The notes beneath the pieces are model-generated. The model was not told the DNA's origin and did not search any database. It saw nothing but the letters and a program-made list of their open reading frames with translations. This document shows positions 1 to 8,375 of a stretch of DNA of 8,375 nucleotides, piece after piece. This DNA is from a virus (taxonomy: Duplodnaviria; Heunggongvirae; Uroviricota; Caudoviricetes). The stretch is taken from the IMG/VR virus record IMGVR_UViG_2529292834_000009, positions 1 through 8,375 of that record, one strand, 5' to 3'. The position numbers were made by a program, and so were the translations under genes. The stretch's first letter is position 1. Each line of letters starts with the position of its first letter.

Positions 1-250
1 TGAGAAGCGGTGTAAGTGAACTGCAGTTGCCATGTTTTACGGCAGTGAGAGCAGAGATAGCGCTGATGTCCGGCGGTGCTTTTGCCGTTACGCACCACCC
101 CGTCAGTAGCTGAACAGGAGGGACAGCTGATAGAAACAGAAGCCACTGGAGCACCTCAAAAACACCATCATACACTAAATCAGTAAGTTGGCAGCATCAC
201 CATTTTTGCTTGTAATTGGCGTTCTGGTCTGATTTTTGTGGAGTAAGTTG

Positions 251-634
251 ATGCGTGATATTCAGATGGTTCTTGAGCGTTGGGGAGCGTGGGCGGCTAA
301 TAATCATGAAGATGTGACCTGGTCGTCCATTGCCGCCGGTTTTAAGGGATTAATTACTTCAAAAGTAAAATCTCGCCCGCAATGTTGTGACGATGACGCG
401 ATGATCATTTGCGGGTGCATGGCCCGTCTGAAAAAGAACAACAGCGATTTGCACGATTTATTAGTAGATTATTATGTAGTCGGTATGACATTCATGTCAC
501 TGGCAGGTAAGCATTGCTGCTCTGATGGTTATATCGGGAAAAGGTTACAGAAGGCTGAGGGCATAATTGAAGGGATGTTAATGGCATTAGATATCCGGTT
601 AGAGATGGATATCGTTGTTAATAACTCTAATTAA
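251..634 (+). CDS. quuD: Q-family late-gene antiterminator (phage 82/DLP12 QuuD type); probable ATG at 251 rather than the track's TTG at 236
   Basis: ORF track 236..634; translation from [26 protein letters not shown]... with Cys-rich region ([16 protein letters not shown]) matches my recollection of DLP12 QuuD; GGAG about 9 nt upstream of ATG 251; position immediately upstream of the lysis region as in lambdoid phages. Confidence 0.8.
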
Positions 635-773
635 TATGCCAATTGTTTACTAAAAATTATTAAAAATGGGGCGTTGAGACGCCCCCAAAAATAAAGGGTA
701 ATATATAACAGAAGGTTTATATAGTTAGAAGCAAGGTTGTGCTTCTAAAGGAAGTGGCTTGAGGGAGCCACTT
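635..773 (+). promoter_or_regulatory. Candidate late promoter / Q-utilisation region with stem-loops (668-673/680-685; 726-733/740-747; 752-759/766-773)
   Basis: Location directly 3' of the Q gene, where lambdoid phages carry PR' and qut; three perfect short inverted repeats read from the sequence; possible -35 TTGAGA (674..679) and -10 TAATAT (699..704) with a suboptimal 19-nt spacer. Promoter assignment is weak. Confidence 0.35.
651..686 (-). terminator. Possible minus-strand intrinsic terminator (distal terminator for the porin transcript)
   Basis: GC stem GGGGCG/CGCCCC (668..673 / 680..685); on the minus strand it is followed by ATTTTTAATAATTTTT (complement of 651..667). Confidence 0.35.
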
Positions 774-815
774 ATATGTTGGGGAGGCAAAGCCTCCCGC
801 AACATATCTTTTTCG
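774..815 (+). terminator. Intrinsic terminator-like hairpin with T-tract (candidate tR' analogue; also lies just 3' of the convergent porin gene)
   Basis: Near-perfect inverted repeat ATATGTTGGGGAGGC / GCCTCCCGCAACATAT (774..788 / 792..807, one bulged base, 3-nt loop) followed by CTTTTTCG (808..815) on the + strand. Confidence 0.5.
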
Positions 816-823
816 TAATCAGA

Positions 824-1906
824 TTAGAACTGATACACCAGACCTACAGCGACGATGTCGTCGGTATCAATACCAGCTGTTTTGGTAAACTTACTATCGT
901 CAATTAAGTTGATTTTGTAATCAACAAAAGTGGACATGTTTTTATTAAAGTAGTAAGTAGCACCGACATCGACATACTTGACTAAGTCTCGGTCACCATG
1001 AACACCAAGGTCTTTACCTTTTGACTGAAGGTAAGCAACAGATGGTCGCAGACCGAAGTCAAACTGATATTGTGCTACTGCTTCAAAGTTTTGTGCTTTG
1101 TTTGCAATATGGTTATTACCAAAAACGGTCATATTCTGAGTTTCAGAATATGTGGTAGCCAGATAGATATTGTTCGCATCATATTTCAGGCCTGCAGCCC
1201 ATACTTCCGCATTTTTGCCGGAGGCATTGAATTTGCTCTTACCATAGGCGACCTGACCGTCAGTGCGATCTGATTTAGCATAGGTTGCACCCACGCCGAA
1301 TCCTTCATACTCATAAGTAGTGGAGAAACCGAAACCATCACCATTGGCTTCAGTTACGTCAGTGCGGTCATTTTTACCCTGATACTGAGCAGCAAAGTTC
1401 AGGCCATCGACCAGACCAAAGAAGTCGTTGTTACGATAGGTTGCAACACCAGTGGTGCGACCAGTCATGAACACATCTGTTTGGGTCCAGGTATCGCCAC
1501 CGAATTCTGGCAGAACGTCAGTCCACGCACCGATGTCGTATGCTACACCGTAGTTACGGCCGTAATCGATTGAGCCGTAGTCACCGAATTTCAGGCCTGC
1601 AAATGCAAGACGGGTTTTGTCTTTGGAGGAACCTTGAGATTCAGCGCGGTTGCCTTTGAATTCATATTCCCACTGACCGAAACCAGTCAGTTGATCGTTG
1701 ATTTGGGTTTCACCTTTGAAGCCAAGACGGGCATAAGTAGTATCACCATCATCTGCATCGTTAGAGGAAAAGTAGTGCTTGGCATTAACTTTCCCGTACA
1801 GATCCAGCTTGTTACTGTCTTTATTATAAATTTCAGCTGCCTGAGCAGACATCGTCATCAGTACTGATGCAGCTACAGCAGAAATTGCCACTGTTAATTT
1901 TTTCAT
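824..1906 (-). CDS. nmpC: Outer-membrane general porin, OmpC/OmpF/PhoE family (phage-encoded Lc/NmpC type), apparently intact
   Basis: 360-aa ORF; N-terminal signal peptide [23 protein letters not shown]|AEIYNKD; porin-typical Gly/Tyr/Asp/Asn-rich beta-strand composition; C-terminal ...VGLVYQF (terminal Phe typical of beta-barrel OMPs); position between Q and the holin on the opposite strand, as for nmpC in DLP12 and lc in phage PA-2. Confidence 0.9.
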
Positions 1907-2494
1907 CGTGAGCCCTTTTTTTTGAACTATTATTAAAAAATGATGTCACTGCGCGATAAATATTCATCTAATCAATGTGATTATTTCAAGATGTAAGTTT
2001 TAGTTTCTCATTTAATTTGTGAAGTAGATCTCTATTTTTATCTGAACTTTTTCTATCGAAACCTATTTATGGCTCTTATTTGAACAAAAATAAACCTATT
2101 AGCTAATTTATATTAATGGCTGTTATTTATGGGGGTTCTATAATTCGGTGGTTTAATTTAAATCAACTAAAAATAACGCCGGAAATTATTTATTGGTTAT
2201 TTGTTGAGGTTTTCTTATATATTTGTGGTGGTGTTTTGAACACTCGGTAGCATTCTCATAAATATCATTCAGTGGTTTACGTACGTAAAAAATTGGTTAT
2301 GCTGTTAAGAGTGGTTACTTCGTCACACAGCTTAAACCCGCCGTCGAGCTGGTTTTTCCATTTTTTGAGTCTCGATATTAGCTGATAACTCAATACCTGA
2401 GTTATTCACTGACTCCGAGTCTGTTACGTTTCTGCTTTTTTGCGATACGTTGTATTCCCTCAATTTACACCCGCTTTGTCTGCGAGGTGGGGTT
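1907..2494. promoter_or_regulatory. AT-rich ORF-free divergent intergenic region: porin promoter/leader (minus strand) and lysis-gene leader (plus strand)
   Basis: No ORF of 60 aa or more in any frame; strongly AT-rich; short direct repeats (AACCTATT at 2060..2067 and 2093..2100; TATTTATGG at 2064..2072 and 2125..2133); perfect 14-bp palindrome TTTACGTACGTAAA at 2276..2289. Confidence 0.4.
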
Positions 2495-2710
2495 ATGAAA
2501 TCCATGGATAAGTTAACAACGGGTGTCGCCTATGGCACCTCAGCAGGTAGTGCCGGTTACTGGTTTTTACAGCTGCTCGATAAAGTCACGCCCTCACAGT
2601 GGGCAGCAATAGGTGTGCTGGGTAGCCTGGTATTTGGCCTGCTGACGTACCTGACAAACCTTTATTTCAAGATTAAAGAAGATAAGCGCAAGGCTGCGAG
2701 AGGTGAATAA
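2495..2710 (+). CDS. essD: Class II holin, phage 21 S (pinholin) type, with dual-start motif (Met1-Lys-Ser-Met4: ATG 2495 and ATG 2504)
   Basis: 71 codons from [26 protein letters not shown]...; two hydrophobic segments; charged C-terminus [13 protein letters not shown]; stop TAA overlaps the endolysin ATG (TAATG at 2708..2712); GGTGGGG upstream. The track ORF 2450..2710 starts further upstream at a less likely start. Confidence 0.85.
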
Positions 2711-3207
2711 TGCCTCCATCATTACGAAAAGCCGTTGCTGCTGCTATTGGTGGCGGAGCAATTGCTATAGCATCAGTGTTAATCACTGGCCCAAGTGGTA
2801 ACGATGGTCTGGAAGGTGTCAGCTACATACCATACAAAGATATCGTTGGCGTATGGACTGTATGTCACGGGCATACAGGAAAAGACATCATTCCCGGTAA
2901 AACGTATACCGAAGCAGAATGCAAAGCCCTCCTGAATAAAGACCTTGCCACGGTAGCCAGACAAATTAACCCGTACATCAAAGTCGATATACCGGAAACA
3001 ACGCGCGGCGCTCTTTACTCGTTCGTTTACAACGTGGGCGCTGGCAATTTCAGAACATCGACGCTTCTTCGCAAAATAAACCAGGGCGATATCAGAGGCG
3101 CATGTGATCAGCTACGTCGCTGGGCATACGCTGGCGGTAAGCAATGGAAAGGTCTCATGACTCGTCGTGAGATTGAGCGTGAAATCTGTTTGTGGGGTCA
3201 GCAATGA
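2710..3207 (+). CDS. rrrD: SAR (signal-anchor-release) endolysin, T4-lysozyme-like muramidase (phage 21 R type)
   Basis: 165 aa; N-terminal Gly/Ala-rich weakly hydrophobic SAR segment ([20 protein letters not shown]) followed by E(35)...D(44)...T motif typical of T4-lysozyme-family catalytic residues; translationally coupled to holin (TAATG) and to Rz (ATGA at 3204..3207). Confidence 0.9.
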
Positions 3208-3665
3208 ACAGAGTAACCGCGATTATCTCCGCTCTGGTTATCTGCATCATCGTCTGCCTGTCATGGGCTGTTAATCATTACCGTGATAACGCCATTACCT
3301 ACAAAGCCCAGCGCGACAAAAATGCCAGAGAACTGAAGCTGGCGAACGCGGCAATTACTGACATGCAGATGCGTCAGCGTGATGTTGCTGCGCTCGATGC
3401 AAAATACACGAAGGAGTTAGCTGATGCGAAAGCTGAAAATGATGCTCTGCGTGATGATGTTGCCGCTGGTCGTCGTCGGTTGCACATCAAAGCAGTCTGT
3501 CAGTCAGTGCGTGAAGCCACCACCGCCTCCGGCGTGGATAATGCAGCCTCCCCCCGACTGGCAGACACCGCTGAACGGGATTATTTCACCCTCAGAGAGA
3601 GGCTGATCACTATGCAAAAACAACTGGAAGGAACCCAGAAGTATATTAATGAGCAGTGCAGATAG
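3204..3665 (+). CDS. rzpD: Rz i-spanin (inner-membrane spanin subunit), lambda type
   Basis: 153 codons from [23 protein letters not shown]...; single N-terminal TM helix then charged coiled-coil-like periplasmic domain; ATG 3204 overlaps the endolysin stop; matches my recollection of lambda Rz. Confidence 0.85.
3424..3606 (+). CDS. rzoD: Rz1 o-spanin (outer-membrane lipoprotein) embedded in the +1 frame of Rz
   Basis: 60 aa [24 protein letters not shown]...; lipobox LVVVGC; Pro-rich (PPPPP, PPP); entirely nested in Rz in a different frame, the classic Rz/Rz1 arrangement. Confidence 0.8.
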
Positions 3666-3696
3666 AGCTGCCCATATCGATGGGCAACTCATGCAA

Positions 3697-3990
3697 TTAT
3701 TGTGAGCAATACACACGCGCTTCCAGCGGAGTATAAATGCCTAAAGTAATAAAACCGAGCAATCCATTTACGAATGTTTGCTGGGTTTCTGTTTTAACAA
3801 CATTTTCTGCGCCGCCACAAATTTTGGCTGCATCAACAGTTTTCTCCTGTCCAATTCCCGAAACGAAGAAGTGATGGGTGATGGTTTCCTTTGGTGTTAC
3901 TGCTGTCGGTTTGTTTCCAACAGTAAACGTCTGTTGAGCACATCCTGTAATAAGCATTGCCAGAGCGGCAGAAAACAACATTTTTTTCAT
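3697..3990 (-). CDS. borD: Bor lipoprotein (serum-resistance / lysogenic-conversion protein)
   Basis: 97 codons from internal ATG 3990: MKKMLFSAALAMLITGCAQQTFTV... with lipobox LITGC; AGGA 8 nt upstream of that ATG; near-identical to my recollection of lambda Bor; the track ORF 3697..4038 starts at an upstream less likely Met. Confidence 0.85.
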   Translation of the reverse strand: MKKMLFSAALAMLITGCAQQTFTVGNKPTAVTPKETITHHFFVSGIGQEKTVDAAKICGGAENVVKTETQQTFVNGLLGFITLGIYTPLEARVYCSQ

Positions 3991-4349
3991 CTTATTATCC
4001 TGCATTGTTAAAAACGGCAGAATCCTATGTGACAACAATTAAACGATAGTTAAATGGATTGATGAAAATTAAAACTATATAGGTGGATGCTCAGCCTATT
4101 GGAGGAGGGGGGCACTCAGAATCCTGTGGAATGAAATAAACCGCTCTTTCTGTCCATTACCCTTTTAGCTGCGCTGTATCGTCGCCGTATTCCCGCATTA
4201 ACCATGACCGTAGCCCGACGGGGAATTCCTTCTGCGTGAGTGTGCGGGAATAATCAAAAACGATGCACACCGGGTTTTACTGTGCTGACAGACGCAGGGT
4301 TACCCTCATAGTCGCTTTTCCGGTGCGATGGTGGAAGAAACCGGGATGT

Positions 4350-4544
4350 TTATTCATCATCACTCTGGATTGATGTATATGCTCTCTTTTCTGACGTTAG
4401 TCTCCGACGGCAGGCTTCAATGACCCAGGCTGAGAAATTCCCAGACCCTTTTTGCTCAAGAGCGATGTTAATTTGTTCAATCATTTGGTTAGGAAAGCGG
4501 ATGTTGCGGGTTGTTGTTCTGCGGGTTCTGTTCTTCGTTGACAT
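4350..4544 (-). CDS. Small basic protein with ribbon-helix-helix-like core (possibly YlcI/DUF3950-like); function unknown
   Basis: 64-aa ORF MSTKNRTRRTTTRNIRFPNQMIEQINIALEQKGSGNFSAWVIEACRRRL...; basic N-terminus followed by a beta-strand/helix pattern (IRFP..., ...GSGNFSAWVIEA) reminiscent of RHH DNA-binding proteins; a 64-aa gene occupies this position in DLP12 by recollection. Family assignment is inference. Confidence 0.5.
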   Translation of the reverse strand: MSTKNRTRRTTTRNIRFPNQMIEQINIALEQKGSGNFSAWVIEACRRRLTSEKRAYTSIQSDDE

Positions 4545-4699
4545 GAGGTTGCCCCGTATTCAGTGTCGCTGATTTGTATTGTCTGAAGTTGTTTTTACGT
4601 TAAGTTGATGCAGATCAATTAATACGATACCTGCGTCATAATTGATTATTTGACGTGGTTTGATGGCGTAGATGCACGTTGTGACATGTAGATGATAAT

Positions 4700-4932
4700 T
4701 ATTATCATTTTGCGGGTCCTTTCCGGCGATCCGACAGGTTACGGGGCGGCGACCTCGCGGGTTTTCGCTATTTATGAAAATTTTCCGGTTTAAGGCATTT
4801 CCGTTCTTCTTCGTCGTAACTTAATGTTTTTATTTAAAATACCCCCTGAAAAGAAAGGAAACGACAGGTGCTGAAAACGAGCTTTTGGGCCTCTGTCGTT
4901 TCCTTTCTCTGTTTTTGGCCGTGGAATGAACA
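4700..4932 (+). other. Lambda-type cos site: cosQ region, cosN (12-nt cohesive end GGGCGGCGACCT at 4744..4755) and cosB (R3 about 4792..4807; R2 4853..4867 and R1 4893..4907 as an inverted pair)
   Basis: ...CCGACAGGTTACG|GGGCGGCGACCTCGCGGGTTTTCGCTATTTATGAAAATTTTCCGG... matches my recollection of the lambda right end joined to the lambda left end; R1 and R2 are exact reverse complements (GAAAGGAAACGACAG / CTGTCGTTTCCTTTC); lies immediately upstream of Nu1. Confidence 0.8.
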
Positions 4933-5478
4933 ATGGAAGTCAACAAAAAGCAGCTGGCTGACATTTTCGGTGCGAGTATCCGTACCATTCAGAACTGGCA
5001 GGAACAGGGAATGCCCGTTCTGCGAGGCGGTGGCAAGGGTAATGAGGTGCTTTATGACTCTGCCGCCGTTATAAGATGGTATGCCGAAAGGGATGCTGAA
5101 ATTGAGAACGAAAAGCTGCGCCGGGAAGTTGAAGAACTGCGGCAGGCCAGCGAGACAGATCTCCAGCCAGGGACTATTGAGTACGAACGCCATCGACTTA
5201 CGCGTGCGCAGGCCGACGCACAGGAGCTGAAAAATGCCAGAGACTCCGCTGAAGTGGTGGAAACCGCATTCTGTACTTTCGTGCTGTCGCGGATCGCAGG
5301 TGAAATTGCCAGTATTCTCGACGGGATCCCCCTGTCGGTGCAGCGGCGTTTTCCGGAACTGGAAAACCGACATGTTGATTTCCTGAAACGGGATATCATC
5401 AAAGCCATGAACAAAGCAGCCGCGCTGGATGAACTGATACCGGGGTTGCTGAGTGAATATATCGAACAGTCAGGTTAA
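4933..5478 (+). CDS. nohD: Terminase small subunit Nu1 (lambda gpNu1), full length
   Basis: 181 aa MEVNKKQLADIFGASIRTIQNWQEQGMPVLRGGGKGNEVLYDSAAV...; near-identical to my recollection of lambda Nu1 (a few substitutions); N-terminal winged-HTH region; 3' end overlaps the start of gene A as in lambda. Confidence 0.9.
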   Translation: MEVNKKQLADIFGASIRTIQNWQEQGMPVLRGGGKGNEVLYDSAAVIRWYAERDAEIENEKLRREVEELRQASETDLQPGTIEYERHRLTRAQADAQELKNARDSAEVVETAFCTFVLSRIAGEIASILDGIPLSVQRRFPELENRHVDFLKRDIIKAMNKAAALDELIPGLLSEYIEQSG

Positions 5479-5668
5479 CAGGCTGCGGCATTTTGTCCGC
5501 GCCGGGCTTCGCTCACTGTTCAGGCCGGAGCCACAGACCGCCGTTGAATGGGCGGATGCTAATTACTATCTCCCGAAAGAATCCGCATACCAGGAAGGGC
5601 GCTGGGAAACACTGCCCTTTCAGCGGGCCATCATGAATGCGATGGGCAGCGACTATAACTGTTATTAA
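5453..5668 (+). pseudogene. Terminase large subunit (lambda gpA) N-terminal fragment; homology ends after about codon 68, then 3 foreign codons and a stop
   Basis: MNISNSQVNRLRHFVRAGLRSLFRPEPQTAVEWADANYYLPKESAYQEGRWETLPFQRAIMNAMGSDY matches the lambda gpA N-terminus by recollection; the full protein is about 640 aa, so roughly 570 codons are missing; breakpoint about 5655..5658. Confidence 0.85.
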
Positions 5669-6581
5669 TGAAAATCCGACAGCACAAGGATATCAGGCAA
5701 TTGCTGTAAACACGAATGATGCTTACACCTGCCCGGCAGGTTCTTATACGACGATATCGTGTCTGACGAAAAGTGATAATTCCCGGTGTCGTGCAAGGTT
5801 CGGAAAAATGTCTGATAATGGTGCGTTTGTTTTTCATTCAGATGCAGTTCTGGATCCTGTTACGGGAAATGTTGTTCATGGAAATAATGTGACGGTGACG
5901 GCAGAAAGAGTCGGTGAATGGTGGTTGTTTACCGCCACTCTTTTTGCAGATGCGGAAATGATAATCAGCTCAAGATTTGAAATCCTGGCGATGCCTGGAA
6001 TCAGTATTATCCCCAATGGCTCTACGTTAGATATTGCGATGCCTCAGGCGGAGATTGGGTCGTACAGGACGTCATTTATCATTACTGAAGGGGCTCCTGG
6101 CACTCGCTCCAGCGACATGGTGACAATACCTGTAAGAAACAATATTCACCGATTACCATTCAGTGCTCTTGTTGAAGTTAATAAAAACTGGGATATCCCT
6201 CCCAGCAAATCACCATTAATCTTTAATGTTAAAGATTATCAGGAAAATGGTCTGTTCACGCATGGATTCCGTGGTAATAATTTCTCTGATGCCGGTTCTC
6301 CTTTTATTTCTATGGGAGGGTGTAATAAATATGTGGCAACAACCCAGAGGAAAATCATTTCAGGCTTCCGTTGTGGCGCTGATGGAGATGTTCAGGCCGT
6401 ATGTAATGGTGAATTATCTGTTGCGGCAAAAACAACATGGACTTCAATTGTTCCACGGGCAGTATTGCGAATTGGAGGGCAGGGCACTAATGGGGAGTAT
6501 CATCTTTTTGGTCATATCCGTAATCTGCGTATCTGGCATAAAGAATTAACTGATGCGCAAATGGGGGAGAGTATTAAATGA
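5637..6581 (+). CDS. C-terminal fragment of a fibre/adhesin-like protein with a predicted concanavalin/LamG-like beta-sandwich C-terminal domain; 5' end lost at the deletion junction (possibly expressed from internal ATG 5808, or a pseudogene)
   Basis: 314-aa ORF whose first about 7 codons overlap the gpA remnant in another frame; beta-rich N/T/G/S/V composition; C-terminus ...VLRIGGQGTNGEYHLFGHIRNLRIWHKELTDAQM resembles the terminal strand motif of LamG-type jelly-roll domains; stop overlaps the next ATG (ATGA at 6578..6581). Domain call is from motif recognition only. Confidence 0.5.
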   Translation: MRWAATITVINENPTAQGYQAIAVNTNDAYTCPAGSYTTISCLTKSDNSRCRARFGKMSDNGAFVFHSDAVLDPVTGNVVHGNNVTVTAERVGEWWLFTATLFADAEMIISSRFEILAMPGISIIPNGSTLDIAMPQAEIGSYRTSFIITEGAPGTRSSDMVTIPVRNNIHRLPFSALVEVNKNWDIPPSKSPLIFNVKDYQENGLFTHGFRGNNFSDAGSPFISMGGCNKYVATTQRKIISGFRCGADGDVQAVCNGELSVAAKTTWTSIVPRAVLRIGGQGTNGEYHLFGHIRNLRIWHKELTDAQMGESIK

Positions 6582-6859
6582 AAGATTTAACACTCAAATT
6601 TGCAGACAGGGCCGACTTTTCGGCCTTTATGGAGAGTATTGGCTATTATGATGACGAGTCGATGCAGGATGATATTCTTATTGACGTGATAGGTAACGTG
6701 TACAAAGAAACCGGAGAACTGACTGAAGATGGCGAACCGGTATGTGTTAAGGAAGACGGATATTTTGTAAACGTGCGCATCATTAATGATGTAAAAAAAT
6801 CGTCAATATTCGATAAATACGCGGTTGTTGTTGAGCATCAACTTCGTGGCTGGATGTGA
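6578..6859 (+). CDS. Small acidic hypothetical protein (93 aa), translationally coupled to the upstream ORF
   Basis: ORF MKDLTLKFADRADFSAFMESIGYYDDESMQDDILIDVIGN...; Asp/Glu-rich; purine-rich GGGGGAGAG upstream; start overlaps the upstream stop. No recognisable family. Confidence 0.55.
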   Translation: MKDLTLKFADRADFSAFMESIGYYDDESMQDDILIDVIGNVYKETGELTEDGEPVCVKEDGYFVNVRIINDVKKSSIFDKYAVVVEHQLRGWM

Positions 6860-6868
6860 GGGAGACAA

Positions 6869-7573
6869 ATGGCTACATCGACAGTAATTCCAGGAGATAT
6901 CACCACGCTAAAGGGAGATGTCAGTAAAACTAAGGAAGATATTTCCTCAATTAACGGAAAAGTATCAACGCTTCAGACTGATATGACCAGTGCAAAGCAG
7001 GATATCAGCACCAGATACACAAAAACTGAAGTTGATAATAAGCTGAAAAACAAACTGGAAGTGAACGATCTGGAAAGCGGTCGTTATGGTGGAGATTTTT
7101 ACCCGTTGACTGGCCGTGAAGCGTTTTATATGTGGGGATTGGGCACGACTACAGCGGCGGCAAACCTTTATCTTAATCCTGACCCTGCAATTTCGTCTGT
7201 ACTGCGGTCAACATCGTCTATTCGCTATAAACATTCAGTAGAGACGATAGATTCAGAGCACGCCGATCTCATTTTCAGGATGCGCCCTGTGTGGTACAGG
7301 TCGCAATACGAAAATGACAGGCGTGACTGGGGATTCTACGGATTGATTGCCGAGGAAGTAGGAGAAATTGCCCCTCAGTTTGTACACTGGCGACCAGCTA
7401 ACGAAGATGATGCTCCTGAAGCTATTTCCAGCAATGGCCTTGTTGCCGAAGGTGTAATGTACGAACGTCTGGTTGTTCCACTGATTCACCATATCCAGAA
7501 GCTGACTGAAAGAGTTGATGAACTTGAGTCAGAATTAAAGTTGTTATCCGTTTCCCGAAGCGATATCGGATAA
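6869..7573 (+). CDS. Short tail-fibre-like protein: N-terminal degenerate repeat segment plus C-terminal domain resembling the self-cleaving intramolecular chaperone (peptidase S74 type) of phage fibres/tailspikes
   Basis: 234 aa; N-terminal about 14-residue degenerate repeats (LKGDVSKTKEDISS / INGKVSTLQTDMTS / AKQDISTRYTKTEV); C-terminal SSIRYKHSVETIDSEHADLIFRMRPVWYRSQYENDRRDWGFYGLIAEEVGEIAPQFV...GLVAEGVMYERLVVPLIHHIQKLTERVDELESELKLL resembles the S-D-x-R-x-K ... GhIAqEv ... coiled C-terminus pattern of S74 chaperone domains; GAGGGAGA SD upstream. Confidence 0.65.
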   Translation: MATSTVIPGDITTLKGDVSKTKEDISSINGKVSTLQTDMTSAKQDISTRYTKTEVDNKLKNKLEVNDLESGRYGGDFYPLTGREAFYMWGLGTTTAAANLYLNPDPAISSVLRSTSSIRYKHSVETIDSEHADLIFRMRPVWYRSQYENDRRDWGFYGLIAEEVGEIAPQFVHWRPANEDDAPEAISSNGLVAEGVMYERLVVPLIHHIQKLTERVDELESELKLLSVSRSDIG

Positions 7574-7583
7574 AGGAGGAGTA

Positions 7584-7877
7584 ATGGATATAACACCTTT
7601 CCTTCATGCGCTTTGTGCTGTGGCTGCGCAGCTACTGATTGGTCTTTTTACCGGGAACTGGGCTTACGGGGCGATAGCCGGTTGTACGTTCTTCATTGCG
7701 CGTGAACACACCCAGGCAGAATATCGCTGGATCGAAATGTTCGGGCATGGCAAGCGAATGAATATGCCGTGGTGGGGCGGTTTTGATACACGTGCATGGG
7801 ATGTGGCAAGCCTGATGGATTTTGCTGTGCCGGTGGTGGCGTGTCTGCTGGTCTGGCTGTTGGTTAATCGTGGGTGA
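7584..7877 (+). CDS. Small predicted inner-membrane protein (97 aa, two hydrophobic helices), unknown function
   Basis: MDITPFLHALCAVAAQLLIGLFTGNWAYGAIAGCTFFIA...VASLMDFAVPVVACLLVWLLVNRG; strong SD AAGGAGG 7 nt upstream of ATG; Trp/Arg-rich central loop. Confidence 0.5.
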   Translation: MDITPFLHALCAVAAQLLIGLFTGNWAYGAIAGCTFFIAREHTQAEYRWIEMFGHGKRMNMPWWGGFDTRAWDVASLMDFAVPVVACLLVWLLVNRG

Positions 7878-7887
7878 AAAAAGGTGA

Positions 7888-8007
7888 GCTGTATATGCAA
7901 CGGAGGAAGAAAACTCGTTGCTGGAAGCCTGGAAAAAGTATCGGGTGCTGCTAAACCGTGTGGACACTTCCGTAGCACCAGATATCGAGTGGCTTATTCA
8001 ACCATAA
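7888..8007 (+). pseudogene. Tail fibre assembly protein (Tfa) C-terminal remnant, about 39 codons, no start codon
   Basis: Frame translation [39 protein letters not shown] closely matches the conserved C-terminus of lambda-type Tfa (...[33 protein letters not shown]...) by recollection; different frame from the preceding ORF; preceded by an in-frame stop at 7885..7887. Confidence 0.6.
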
Positions 8008-8375
8008 TAAACAGTATGTATATCATAGGTTATTAATTGTGAGTTTTTTCGGTGTGTTATTTGTTTGTTTGATGTTATGCTTTTGCGCCCCAAAAGGTTG
8101 TTTAGATGTATTTTATCAATTGATTTTCAATGTCGTTTAATAAAGAAAAATTAAGCAAGCTGGATGTTGGTTTTTTGTTAATTGAATGGTTCTAATAATG
8201 TTTTTTTACTGTTGTTGAATGTGACTTGATAAGAAATGCAAGTAAAAATGATACTCTTTTTATTTTAAATTCAAACGGTTGACATATATATAGCAAGAGG
8301 TTTCAGGTGCGTTGTAGTGAGTTTATGTTAATAAAAAGTATAGTAAGCGTTGAAAAATGTAACTTTGAAATACGT
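8008..8375. promoter_or_regulatory. AT-rich ORF-free region, probably the upstream/regulatory region of a gene beyond the window
   Basis: No ORF of 60 aa or more; strongly AT-rich with T-runs; TTGACA at 8279..8284 but no convincing -10 at proper spacing. Confidence 0.3.

Follow-up and report, generated by a model that had tools for sequence, protein, structure and literature searches.

A lambda-type cos site, probably usable by helper phages, beside an intact nohD gene in a relic of the cryptic prophage DLP12

The cos–nohD locus described here lies in a window of 8,375 bp (the whole stretch of DNA that was analysed) and is what remains of the right-hand part of DLP12, a lambdoid cryptic prophage. 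With a probability of roughly 0.78, this relic carries a cos site that a lambda-type helper phage could use, does not support efficient transduction, and has recombination with infecting lambdoid phages as its realistic consequence. The preliminary description of this DNA had proposed that the cos site would act as a starting point for helper-dependent directional transduction. That idea is not new, as it is the situation of the lambda docL particles and of passive prophages, and the locus itself is the textbook DLP12 cos–nohD arrangement.

The window matched the DLP12 region of ETEC-type Escherichia coli chromosomes with 99.8% identity over positions 202–8375, and the exact truncated form of the element was found in ∼73 genomes. 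In the annotated relatives, the element is located between tRNA-Arg (argU)/intD and appY, and its genes follow the order rusA, ylcG, quuD, a porin gene on the opposite strand, essD, rrrD, rzpD, bor/iss, ylcI, nohD, a terminase-A fragment and tail-fibre remnants. Both the argU/intD–appY location and the gene order from quuD through porin, essD, rrrD, rzpD, bor and ylcI to nohD identify the element as DLP12. The coordinates of the window genes from quuD to nohD were carried over from the annotation of a relative with 99.8% identity over 202–8375 (Table 1). Near-identical annotated records left no doubt about what each part is. The element in the annotated relative contains intD, short fragments, rusA, ylcG, quuD, the lysis genes, nohD and fibre remnants only, and no head, tail or replication genes are annotated within it in two related genomes. 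The same site, the same gene order (cos, nohD and a truncated A, aaaD) and an identical NohD are found in the DLP12 (qsr') of E. coli K-12. The window differs from K-12 in the absence of ybcV and ybcW, in a porin gene without the IS5 interruption and in the IS1 end that abuts quuD. A scan of the whole window against Rfam returned no RNA family. It is expected that nohD would be transcribed from the upstream late-operon context (251–3665; quuD, essD, rrrD, and rzpD), and a promoter and terminator scan of 3600–5800 gave counts not above those of shuffled sequence, with no sign of a separate nohD promoter.

Table 1. Features of the window and the basis of their assignment.
Feature	Position	Strand	Remarks
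IS1 end	1–201		adjoins quuD
quuD	251–634	+	transferred annotation; Pfam Phage_antitermQ
Porin gene	824–1906	-	transferred annotation
essD	2495–2710	+	transferred annotation
rrrD	2710–3207	+	transferred annotation
rzpD	3204–3665	+	transferred annotation
bor/iss	3697–3990	-	transferred annotation
ylcI	4350–4544	-	transferred annotation
cosQ (GGGTCCT)	4714–4720	+	lambda bp -29 to -23; exact lambda match; invariant in 11 aligned sequences
cosN (∼22 bp)	4739–4760	+	same as lambda; single copy in the window
12-nt cohesive-end sequence GGGCGGCGACCT	4744–4755		exact; one copy in the window
I2	4761–4793	+	lambda bp 18–50; identical to lambda
cosB R3, TerS binding site	4795–4810	+	lambda bp 52–67; natural variant G54A at 4797
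cosB I1, predicted IHF bending site	4817–4843	+	lambda bp 74–100; identical to lambda
cosB R2, TerS site, inverted relative to R3 and R1	4848–4867	-	lambda bp 105–124; identical to lambda; invariant in the alignment
cosB R1, accessory TerS site	4893–4911	+	lambda bp 150–168; identical to lambda
nohD, intact Nu1-type small terminase subunit (181 aa)	4933–5478	+	likeness to lambda Nu1; Pfam PF07471
Gene A (large terminase) remnant	5453–5668	+	68 codons as in lambda, followed by 3 foreign ones and a stop
Deletion junction	5655/5656		clean, 1-bp microhomology; blastn of the window against strain FG92-1
Tail-fibre remnant	5656–8007	+	PHROG, Pfam, and RefSeq annotation of a relative
C-terminal ∼310 aa of a 781-aa fibre protein	to 6581	+	
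Small ORFs	6578–6859, 7584–7877	+	
Fibre C-terminus with S74 chaperone domain	6869–7573	+	
tfa fragment	7897–8007	+	

Alignment of window positions 4600–5000 with the lambda cos region of phage DE3, the record of which annotates the cos site, revealed a complete lambda-type cos (cosQ, cosN, I2, and R3-I1-R2-R1) at 4714–4911, with lambda bp n corresponding to window position n + 4743. Over 4700–4932, 10 substitutions and no indels separated the window from lambda, and hence all the cos spacings are as in lambda. The matches of this segment to lambda-type phages had E values of 2e-103 to 6e-119, so the resemblance is not due to chance. There was no change between 4728 and 4796, and a single substitution, G to A at bp 54 on the left edge of R3, fell inside a named subsite. 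At the sequence level, the cosN with its cohesive-end sequence, the spacing of cosQ, I2 and the tripartite cosB of a lambda-type cos were all present, in agreement with the cos site having been described as complete and lambda-like. A top-strand nick is expected between 4743 and 4744. The lambda coordinates of cosQ are presumably bp 48473–48479. Functionally, cosQ is the packaging-termination element (PMC4669245; PMC4856287), and I2 is a bent AT-rich segment needed early in packaging as well as for termination (PMC4856287). In R3, bp 56, 58, and 59 are critical for recognition by TerS, and the cosN–R3 spacing has been stressed by the Feiss laboratory (PMC4669245); these base pairs (window 4799, 4801, and 4802) and the spacing are as in lambda.

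The window cos was further compared with those of lambda, K-12 DLP12 and eight other lambdoid phages. Each difference between the window and lambda was found in at least one other lambdoid phage, while cosQ, cosN, the R3 core, R2 and most of R1 were invariant and I2 and I1 varied at one position each, in one sequence. Positions 53 and 54 read CG in lambda, TG in 2H10 and an Stx1 phage and CA in PhiR42_1, and both positions are therefore polymorphic among lambdoid phages. Window positions 4690–5655, from cosQ through the gene A remnant, were 100% identical to Escherichia phage PhiR42_1 (PV340562), including the G-to-A change in R3. PhiR42_1 carries a full Nu1-A-W-B-C-D-E head module behind the same cos, its record names the host ECOR13, and it is one of the PhiR phages, which are temperate, related to lambda and used as a panel in plaquing assays; its record and panel membership suggest that it is viable. 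By these comparative criteria, the window cos is intact, and its cleavage in vivo would be expected. The A at bp 54 of R3 could somewhat reduce the affinity for lambda's own Nu1, since a G occupies the equivalent position in all three lambda R sites, or it could raise the dependence on IHF. The view that a lambda-specificity terminase should recognise this cos thus gains support from the PhiR42_1 identity, from the variants present in lambdoid phages and from the hybrids of lambda with K-12 DLP12 (PMC3945230). For the K-12 allele, helper recognition of the DLP12 cos and the function of its Nu1 with lambda gpA are already established.

The NohD protein shares 178 of 181 residues (98%) with lambda Nu1, the changes being K48R, A75T and L132I, and residues 1–47, which include the DNA-binding winged helix-turn-helix, are identical. 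Residues 1–164 matched the Pfam Phage_Nu1 model over its positions 1–164 of 164 (E = 2.4e-101), and Nu1 is thus intact, as had been claimed. The protein is the same RefSeq entry as K-12 NohD, WP_000453611.1, and the gene is nucleotide-identical to the Nu1 gene of PhiR42_1. Since the published result concerns the identical K-12 protein, NohD of the window would work with gpA in packaging. An E. coli paper (PMC11297538) lists NohA/NohD changes in which the substitutions are of the paralogue type, and these look like read-mapping artefacts. The intactness of nohD was considered as a sign of selection, and this was rejected: the nohD–A' DNA is nucleotide-identical between the window strain and K-12, which leaves no time for decay and makes intactness uninformative, and in other lineages nohD has been cut, which argues against selection for the ORF. 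The 100% nucleotide identity of nohD to K-12 may also be read as conservation, a point against the explanation of the gene as a relic.

The large terminase is represented by 68 of the 641 residues of gpA, identical to those of lambda, with neither the ATPase (PF05876) nor the nuclease (PF20454) domain, and TerL is therefore non-functional. PHROG matches to the terminase large subunit covered residues 1–68 of the remnant only, and a Pfam search of the remnant found no domain. With TerL truncated in this way, and with no head, tail or replication genes annotated in the related genomes, the element is unable to package itself, as stated in the preliminary description. The history of the truncation was evident from strain FG92-1, which has the same DLP12 variant. 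In this strain, gpA residues 1–551, containing both the ATPase and the nuclease domains, continue in frame into the C-terminal portion of the tail-tip protein J, and the fusion is followed by an intact 781-aa side-tail-fibre-like gene. Relative to the window, FG92-1 has 3,683 bp extra, corresponding to the rest of the A(1–551)::J' fusion and the N-terminal 60% of the side-tail-fibre gene, and at the junction in the window A codon 68 runs directly into the final ∼310 codons of that gene. The DNA to the right of the junction, earlier called a cassette, is thus a tail-fibre remnant, which matches side-tail-fibre regions of lambdoid phages with 93% identity. Gene A ends differently in each case, as A(1–551)::J' in FG92-1, A(1–68)::stf' with the fibre C-terminus in the window and A(1–103)::tfa' in K-12, and in further genomes the deletion endpoints lie at A position ∼1.8 kb or within nohD (query positions 690–746). 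Judged from these endpoints, this is a typical erosion series. The deletions would have taken away gene A from codon 69 onward, every head and tail gene and a portion of the tail-fibre gene; cos–nohD is still intact here because successive deletions have not yet reached it.

Helper phages initiate packaging at chromosomal cos sites (PMC4669245). In the passive-prophage system studied by the Feiss laboratory, the helper terminase packages a chromosomal prophage, 1–4 per cell, only when it starts at an upstream cos and ends at a downstream one; cosN and cosB serve to initiate, and cosQ and cosN (together with I2) are needed to terminate (PMC4669245). Without cosQ, translocation is not arrested and the chromosome is not terminated, which is lethal, and cleavage of cos in vivo also needs proheads and gpFI (PMC4856287). 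Alone, the locus would do nothing. In a cell in which a lambda-specificity phage is growing, terminase and IHF would bind cosB and nick cosN, and the stable complex on the nohD side would dock on a prohead and pump the chromosome rightward (nohD, the fibre remnant, appY, ompT, nfrAB, cus and onward). The rightward direction of packaging, toward nohD and appY, had been correctly assigned. The head would fill with ∼48 kb to the right of 4744, but this DNA would remain uncut since there is no cosQ/cosN downstream, and mature transducing particles would be rare or absent. The exposed left end, on the side of ylcI, bor and the lysis genes, would be recombinogenic, and the relic and infecting lambdoid phages would swap alleles of cos, nu1 and the lysis region. 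Helper-driven cutting and rightward entry of DNA are thus likely, and efficient directional transduction is not.

The distance to a possible second site was evaluated in the closest complete genome, NZ_CP029981.1, which is 100% identical over 4700–5700, by taking the 75 kb that follow the locus in the direction of packaging. This segment contains appY, ompT, envY, nfrAB, rhs/vgrG, cusSRCFBA, pheP and the ent/fep cluster, and no prophage. A search of the 75 kb for a second cos (the 12-nt end with at most 2 mismatches and a nearby cosQ) returned only the DLP12 site itself, and the whole genome has a single lambda-type cos–Nu1 place. Failure of termination at the window locus would thus be expected. 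Unlike lambda, the window locus has no functional gpA, no head or tail genes and no concatemer, and without a concatemer there is no second cos to end packaging. The Feiss passive prophages and the docL particles resemble the window locus in that a repressed or defective chromosomal cos is used in trans, rightward, by the terminase of a lytic helper, but in the Feiss system a second cos is provided one genome length downstream and at the window locus there is none.

The strongest competing explanation is that the orphan cos is a helper-dependent origin of directional, lateral-like transduction that moves the fibre remnant and flanking chromosome at a biologically meaningful frequency, and we consider this improbable. 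All the elements required for initiation (cosN, I2 and cosB) are present, chromosomal cos sites do serve helpers, filled heads would keep DNase from the ∼48 kb that lie rightward of cos, and helpers are common, intact lambda-type cos-Nu1-A-W-B loci being found in 3,203 of 5,426 complete genomes. It also draws on the rare lambda docL particles that Sternberg and Weisberg, and later Sternberg, are said to have described, which reportedly start at cos and end in bacterial DNA. Such particles are an inefficient, aberrant outcome in the absence of a downstream cos. Termination failure is accordingly not absolute, and low-level docL-like events are possible, as an old and known phenomenon. Against an efficient process stands the need for a downstream cosQ/cosN/I2 where there is none within 75 kb. 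Reviews and recent papers state that cos terminases need a second cos and that protruding uncut DNA prevents tail attachment, and in the current literature cos phages such as lambda perform no lateral or generalized transduction. The lateral transduction known for pac (headful) prophages resembles the proposal in its directional packaging from an in situ site into flanking chromosome, but it needs a sequence-independent headful cut and in situ replication. The window locus has neither a headful cut nor a second site, and as DLP12 lacks a replication module there is no in situ amplification, leaving few substrate copies per cell at most. The suggested helper-dependent directional transduction is therefore not supported, with no downstream cos to terminate packaging and tail joining blocked by uncut DNA.

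The preliminary description had also suggested that the retained Nu1 might compete for or modulate a helper terminase. In its fuller form, this explanation holds that NohD, the 68-residue N-terminal peptide of gpA and/or the decoy cos reduce the yield of lambda-type phages, through titration of terminase or proheads or through dead-end complexes, and that the locus is kept as a defence. The N-terminus of gpA carries the Nu1-binding region, and two independent truncations (68 codons here and 103 in K-12) both retain it. Further, nohD is intact and identical in distant strains, and each chromosomal cos could use up a prohead. The data relevant to Nu1 give no support to interference and show a protein that simply works as Nu1, the identical NohD acting as a normal Nu1 in lambda hybrids (PMC3945230). 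Lambda grows normally on K-12, which has the cos–noh loci of both DLP12 and Qin. The deletions of other lineages that end inside nohD speak against selection for the ORF, the nucleotide identity of K-12 and the window leaves too little time for decay, and the 3600–5800 scan found no separate promoter from which nohD could be expressed. It is thus very unlikely that the locus is maintained for active interference.

A broader proposal treats orphan cos–nohD–A' loci either as a population-level anti-lambdoid defence, in which they would act as decoys at which the chromosome is cut and proheads are wasted or in which NohD paired with the N-terminal gpA peptide would poison terminase assembly, or as members of same-orientation cos pairs 38–52 kb apart that would form efficient cos-to-cos transduction units; it is unsupported and would be surprising if true. 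There is equally little to be expected from the explanation that the site is an inert relic that is never used because the R3 variant or the chromosomal context bars productive binding of terminase. It could appeal to the position of bp 54 within R3, to the reported finding, attributed to Cue and Feiss, that single R-site transitions make lambda IHF-dependent, and to the additional need for proheads and gpFI in vivo, and it is opposed by the use of the same cos as the cos of PhiR42_1, by the natural polymorphism at positions 53 and 54, by the unchanged bp 56, 58, and 59 and by the use that helpers make of chromosomal cos sites (PMC4669245).

A satellite of the PICI type was also considered and rejected on gene content. 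The cos-type PICIs (e.g., EcCICFT073) have a chromosomal cos compatible with a helper and depend on helper capsids and terminase. They excise, replicate, form cos-to-cos units and encode Rpp, which redirects the helper terminase. DLP12, in contrast, has no replication module, and no regulatory or packaging-redirection gene is annotated in it.

The reading of the locus as a DLP12 relic with a usable cos, and with recombination as its outcome, is in agreement with the distribution of substitutions. K-12 and the window are separated by 9 substitutions within the 233-bp cos region, and the next 723 bp are free of substitutions. This contrast and the complete match to PhiR42_1 both indicate recombination with live phages, in line with the published cos-proximal hotspot (PMC3945230). 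De Paepe et al. (PMC3945230) showed that lambda recombines with DLP12 across the cos region, with 10 of 19 sequenced lambda × DLP12 junctions adjoining cos; the nu1 and cos-flanking DNA of K-12 DLP12 gave viable lambda hybrids, and every recombinant that had acquired R, Rz or nu1 from DLP12 was active. The authors proposed that recombination is stimulated by terminase cutting the cos of lambda as well as that of DLP12. Cos-stimulated recombination with infecting lambdoid phages is a more likely outcome at this locus than transduction.

The prevalence of such sites was considerable. Of 5,426 complete E. coli genomes, 4,629 carried lambda-type cos–Nu1 DNA, with a median of two such places in each and with many different truncation points. 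In 3,203 of the 4,629, at least one cos–Nu1 locus continued as far as A, W and B, so that cos sites of lambda specificity are ubiquitous in E. coli in both orphan and intact form. From the qsr' hybrids onward, use has been made of the compatibility of DLP12 with lambda, and to our knowledge the DLP12 cos–nohD relic is annotated in every E. coli K-12 genome. This compatibility was shown again in 2014 (PMC3945230). The locus is, accordingly, an already known, ordinary relic and not a new gene-transfer device. Were an orphan cos shown to drive transduction or to hinder helpers, the current view that flanking chromosome is not mobilised by cos phages would need revision. Most E. coli chromosomes hold at least one lambda-compatible packaging origin, where helpers induce double-strand breaks and where dead and live phages exchange genes.

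Comparison with the DLP12 locus of K-12 showed a mosaic around cos. The 233-bp non-coding cos region of the window carries nine substitutions relative to K-12, and the 723 bp of coding DNA directly after it carries none. The lambdoid phage PhiR42_1 was found to be identical to the window over the entire 4690–5655 stretch. The mosaic relation to K-12, together with this unbroken identity to PhiR42_1, suggests a recent exchange near cos between the DLP12 relic and a live lambdoid phage. The cos–nohD part as a whole is 98.6% identical to K-12, whereas the left prophage part, which holds the porin gene, shows only 91% identity. In K-12 DLP12, the nmpC gene homologous to the porin gene adjoins an IS5. 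The K-12 prophage also lacks a counterpart of the 288-bp segment between bor/iss and ylcI and harbors ybcV and ybcW (about 1.3 kb) in the same place.

Features of the prophage (window coordinates unless another locus is named)
Feature	Position	Strand	Context or annotation
IS1, terminal ~200 bp	1–201		ends 50 bp upstream of quuD
OmpC/NmpC-type porin gene, intact, 360 aa	824–1906	−	between quuD and lysis genes
60-aa ORF	3424–3606		other frame, nested in rzpD
288-bp segment	4045–4332		between bor/iss and ylcI
314-aa ORF	5637–6581		RefSeq label "phage head spike fiber domain-containing protein"
802-aa in-frame fusion ORF	L014 (E. coli FG92-1 locus) 6252–8660		annotated "terminase gpA endonuclease subunit"

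Contrary to its RefSeq label, the 314-aa ORF is a chimera made by deletion. The terminase-A remnant supplies its start ATG, read in a different frame, and from residue ~6 onward the chimera consists of the last (C-terminal) 40% of a side-tail-fibre-like protein of 781 aa. In the fusion ORF of FG92-1, gpA residues 1–551, which span the ATPase and the greater part of the nuclease domain, are followed by the receptor-binding C-terminal portion of the tail-tip protein J. This gpA–J fusion is an earlier decay stage of the same prophage as that in the window.

The ORF nested in rzpD, which is without annotation in the RefSeq relatives examined, contains a lipoprotein-type signal (…VVVGC) followed by a tail rich in proline and, judged by its sequence, is an Rz1-type spanin partner (rzoD). 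At the left edge, rusA and ylcG occupy the place of the IS1 end in the closest genomes, whose matches to this stretch are other IS1 copies. The IS1 insertion seems specific to the source strain and was possibly accompanied by the loss of upstream prophage DNA. It may separate quuD from upstream transcription, and with it the late operon to which nohD belongs.

Many E. coli genomes contained matches that covered only the first 85–89 bases of the lambda-type cos–Nu1 query, i.e., cosQ–cosN–I2, and diverged before R3. Such partial matches are probably the cos sites of phages with other cosB/TerS specificity. Since termination by lambda-type terminase is not cosB-specific (PMC4669245), these sites could still be used by it as termination sites for packaging.
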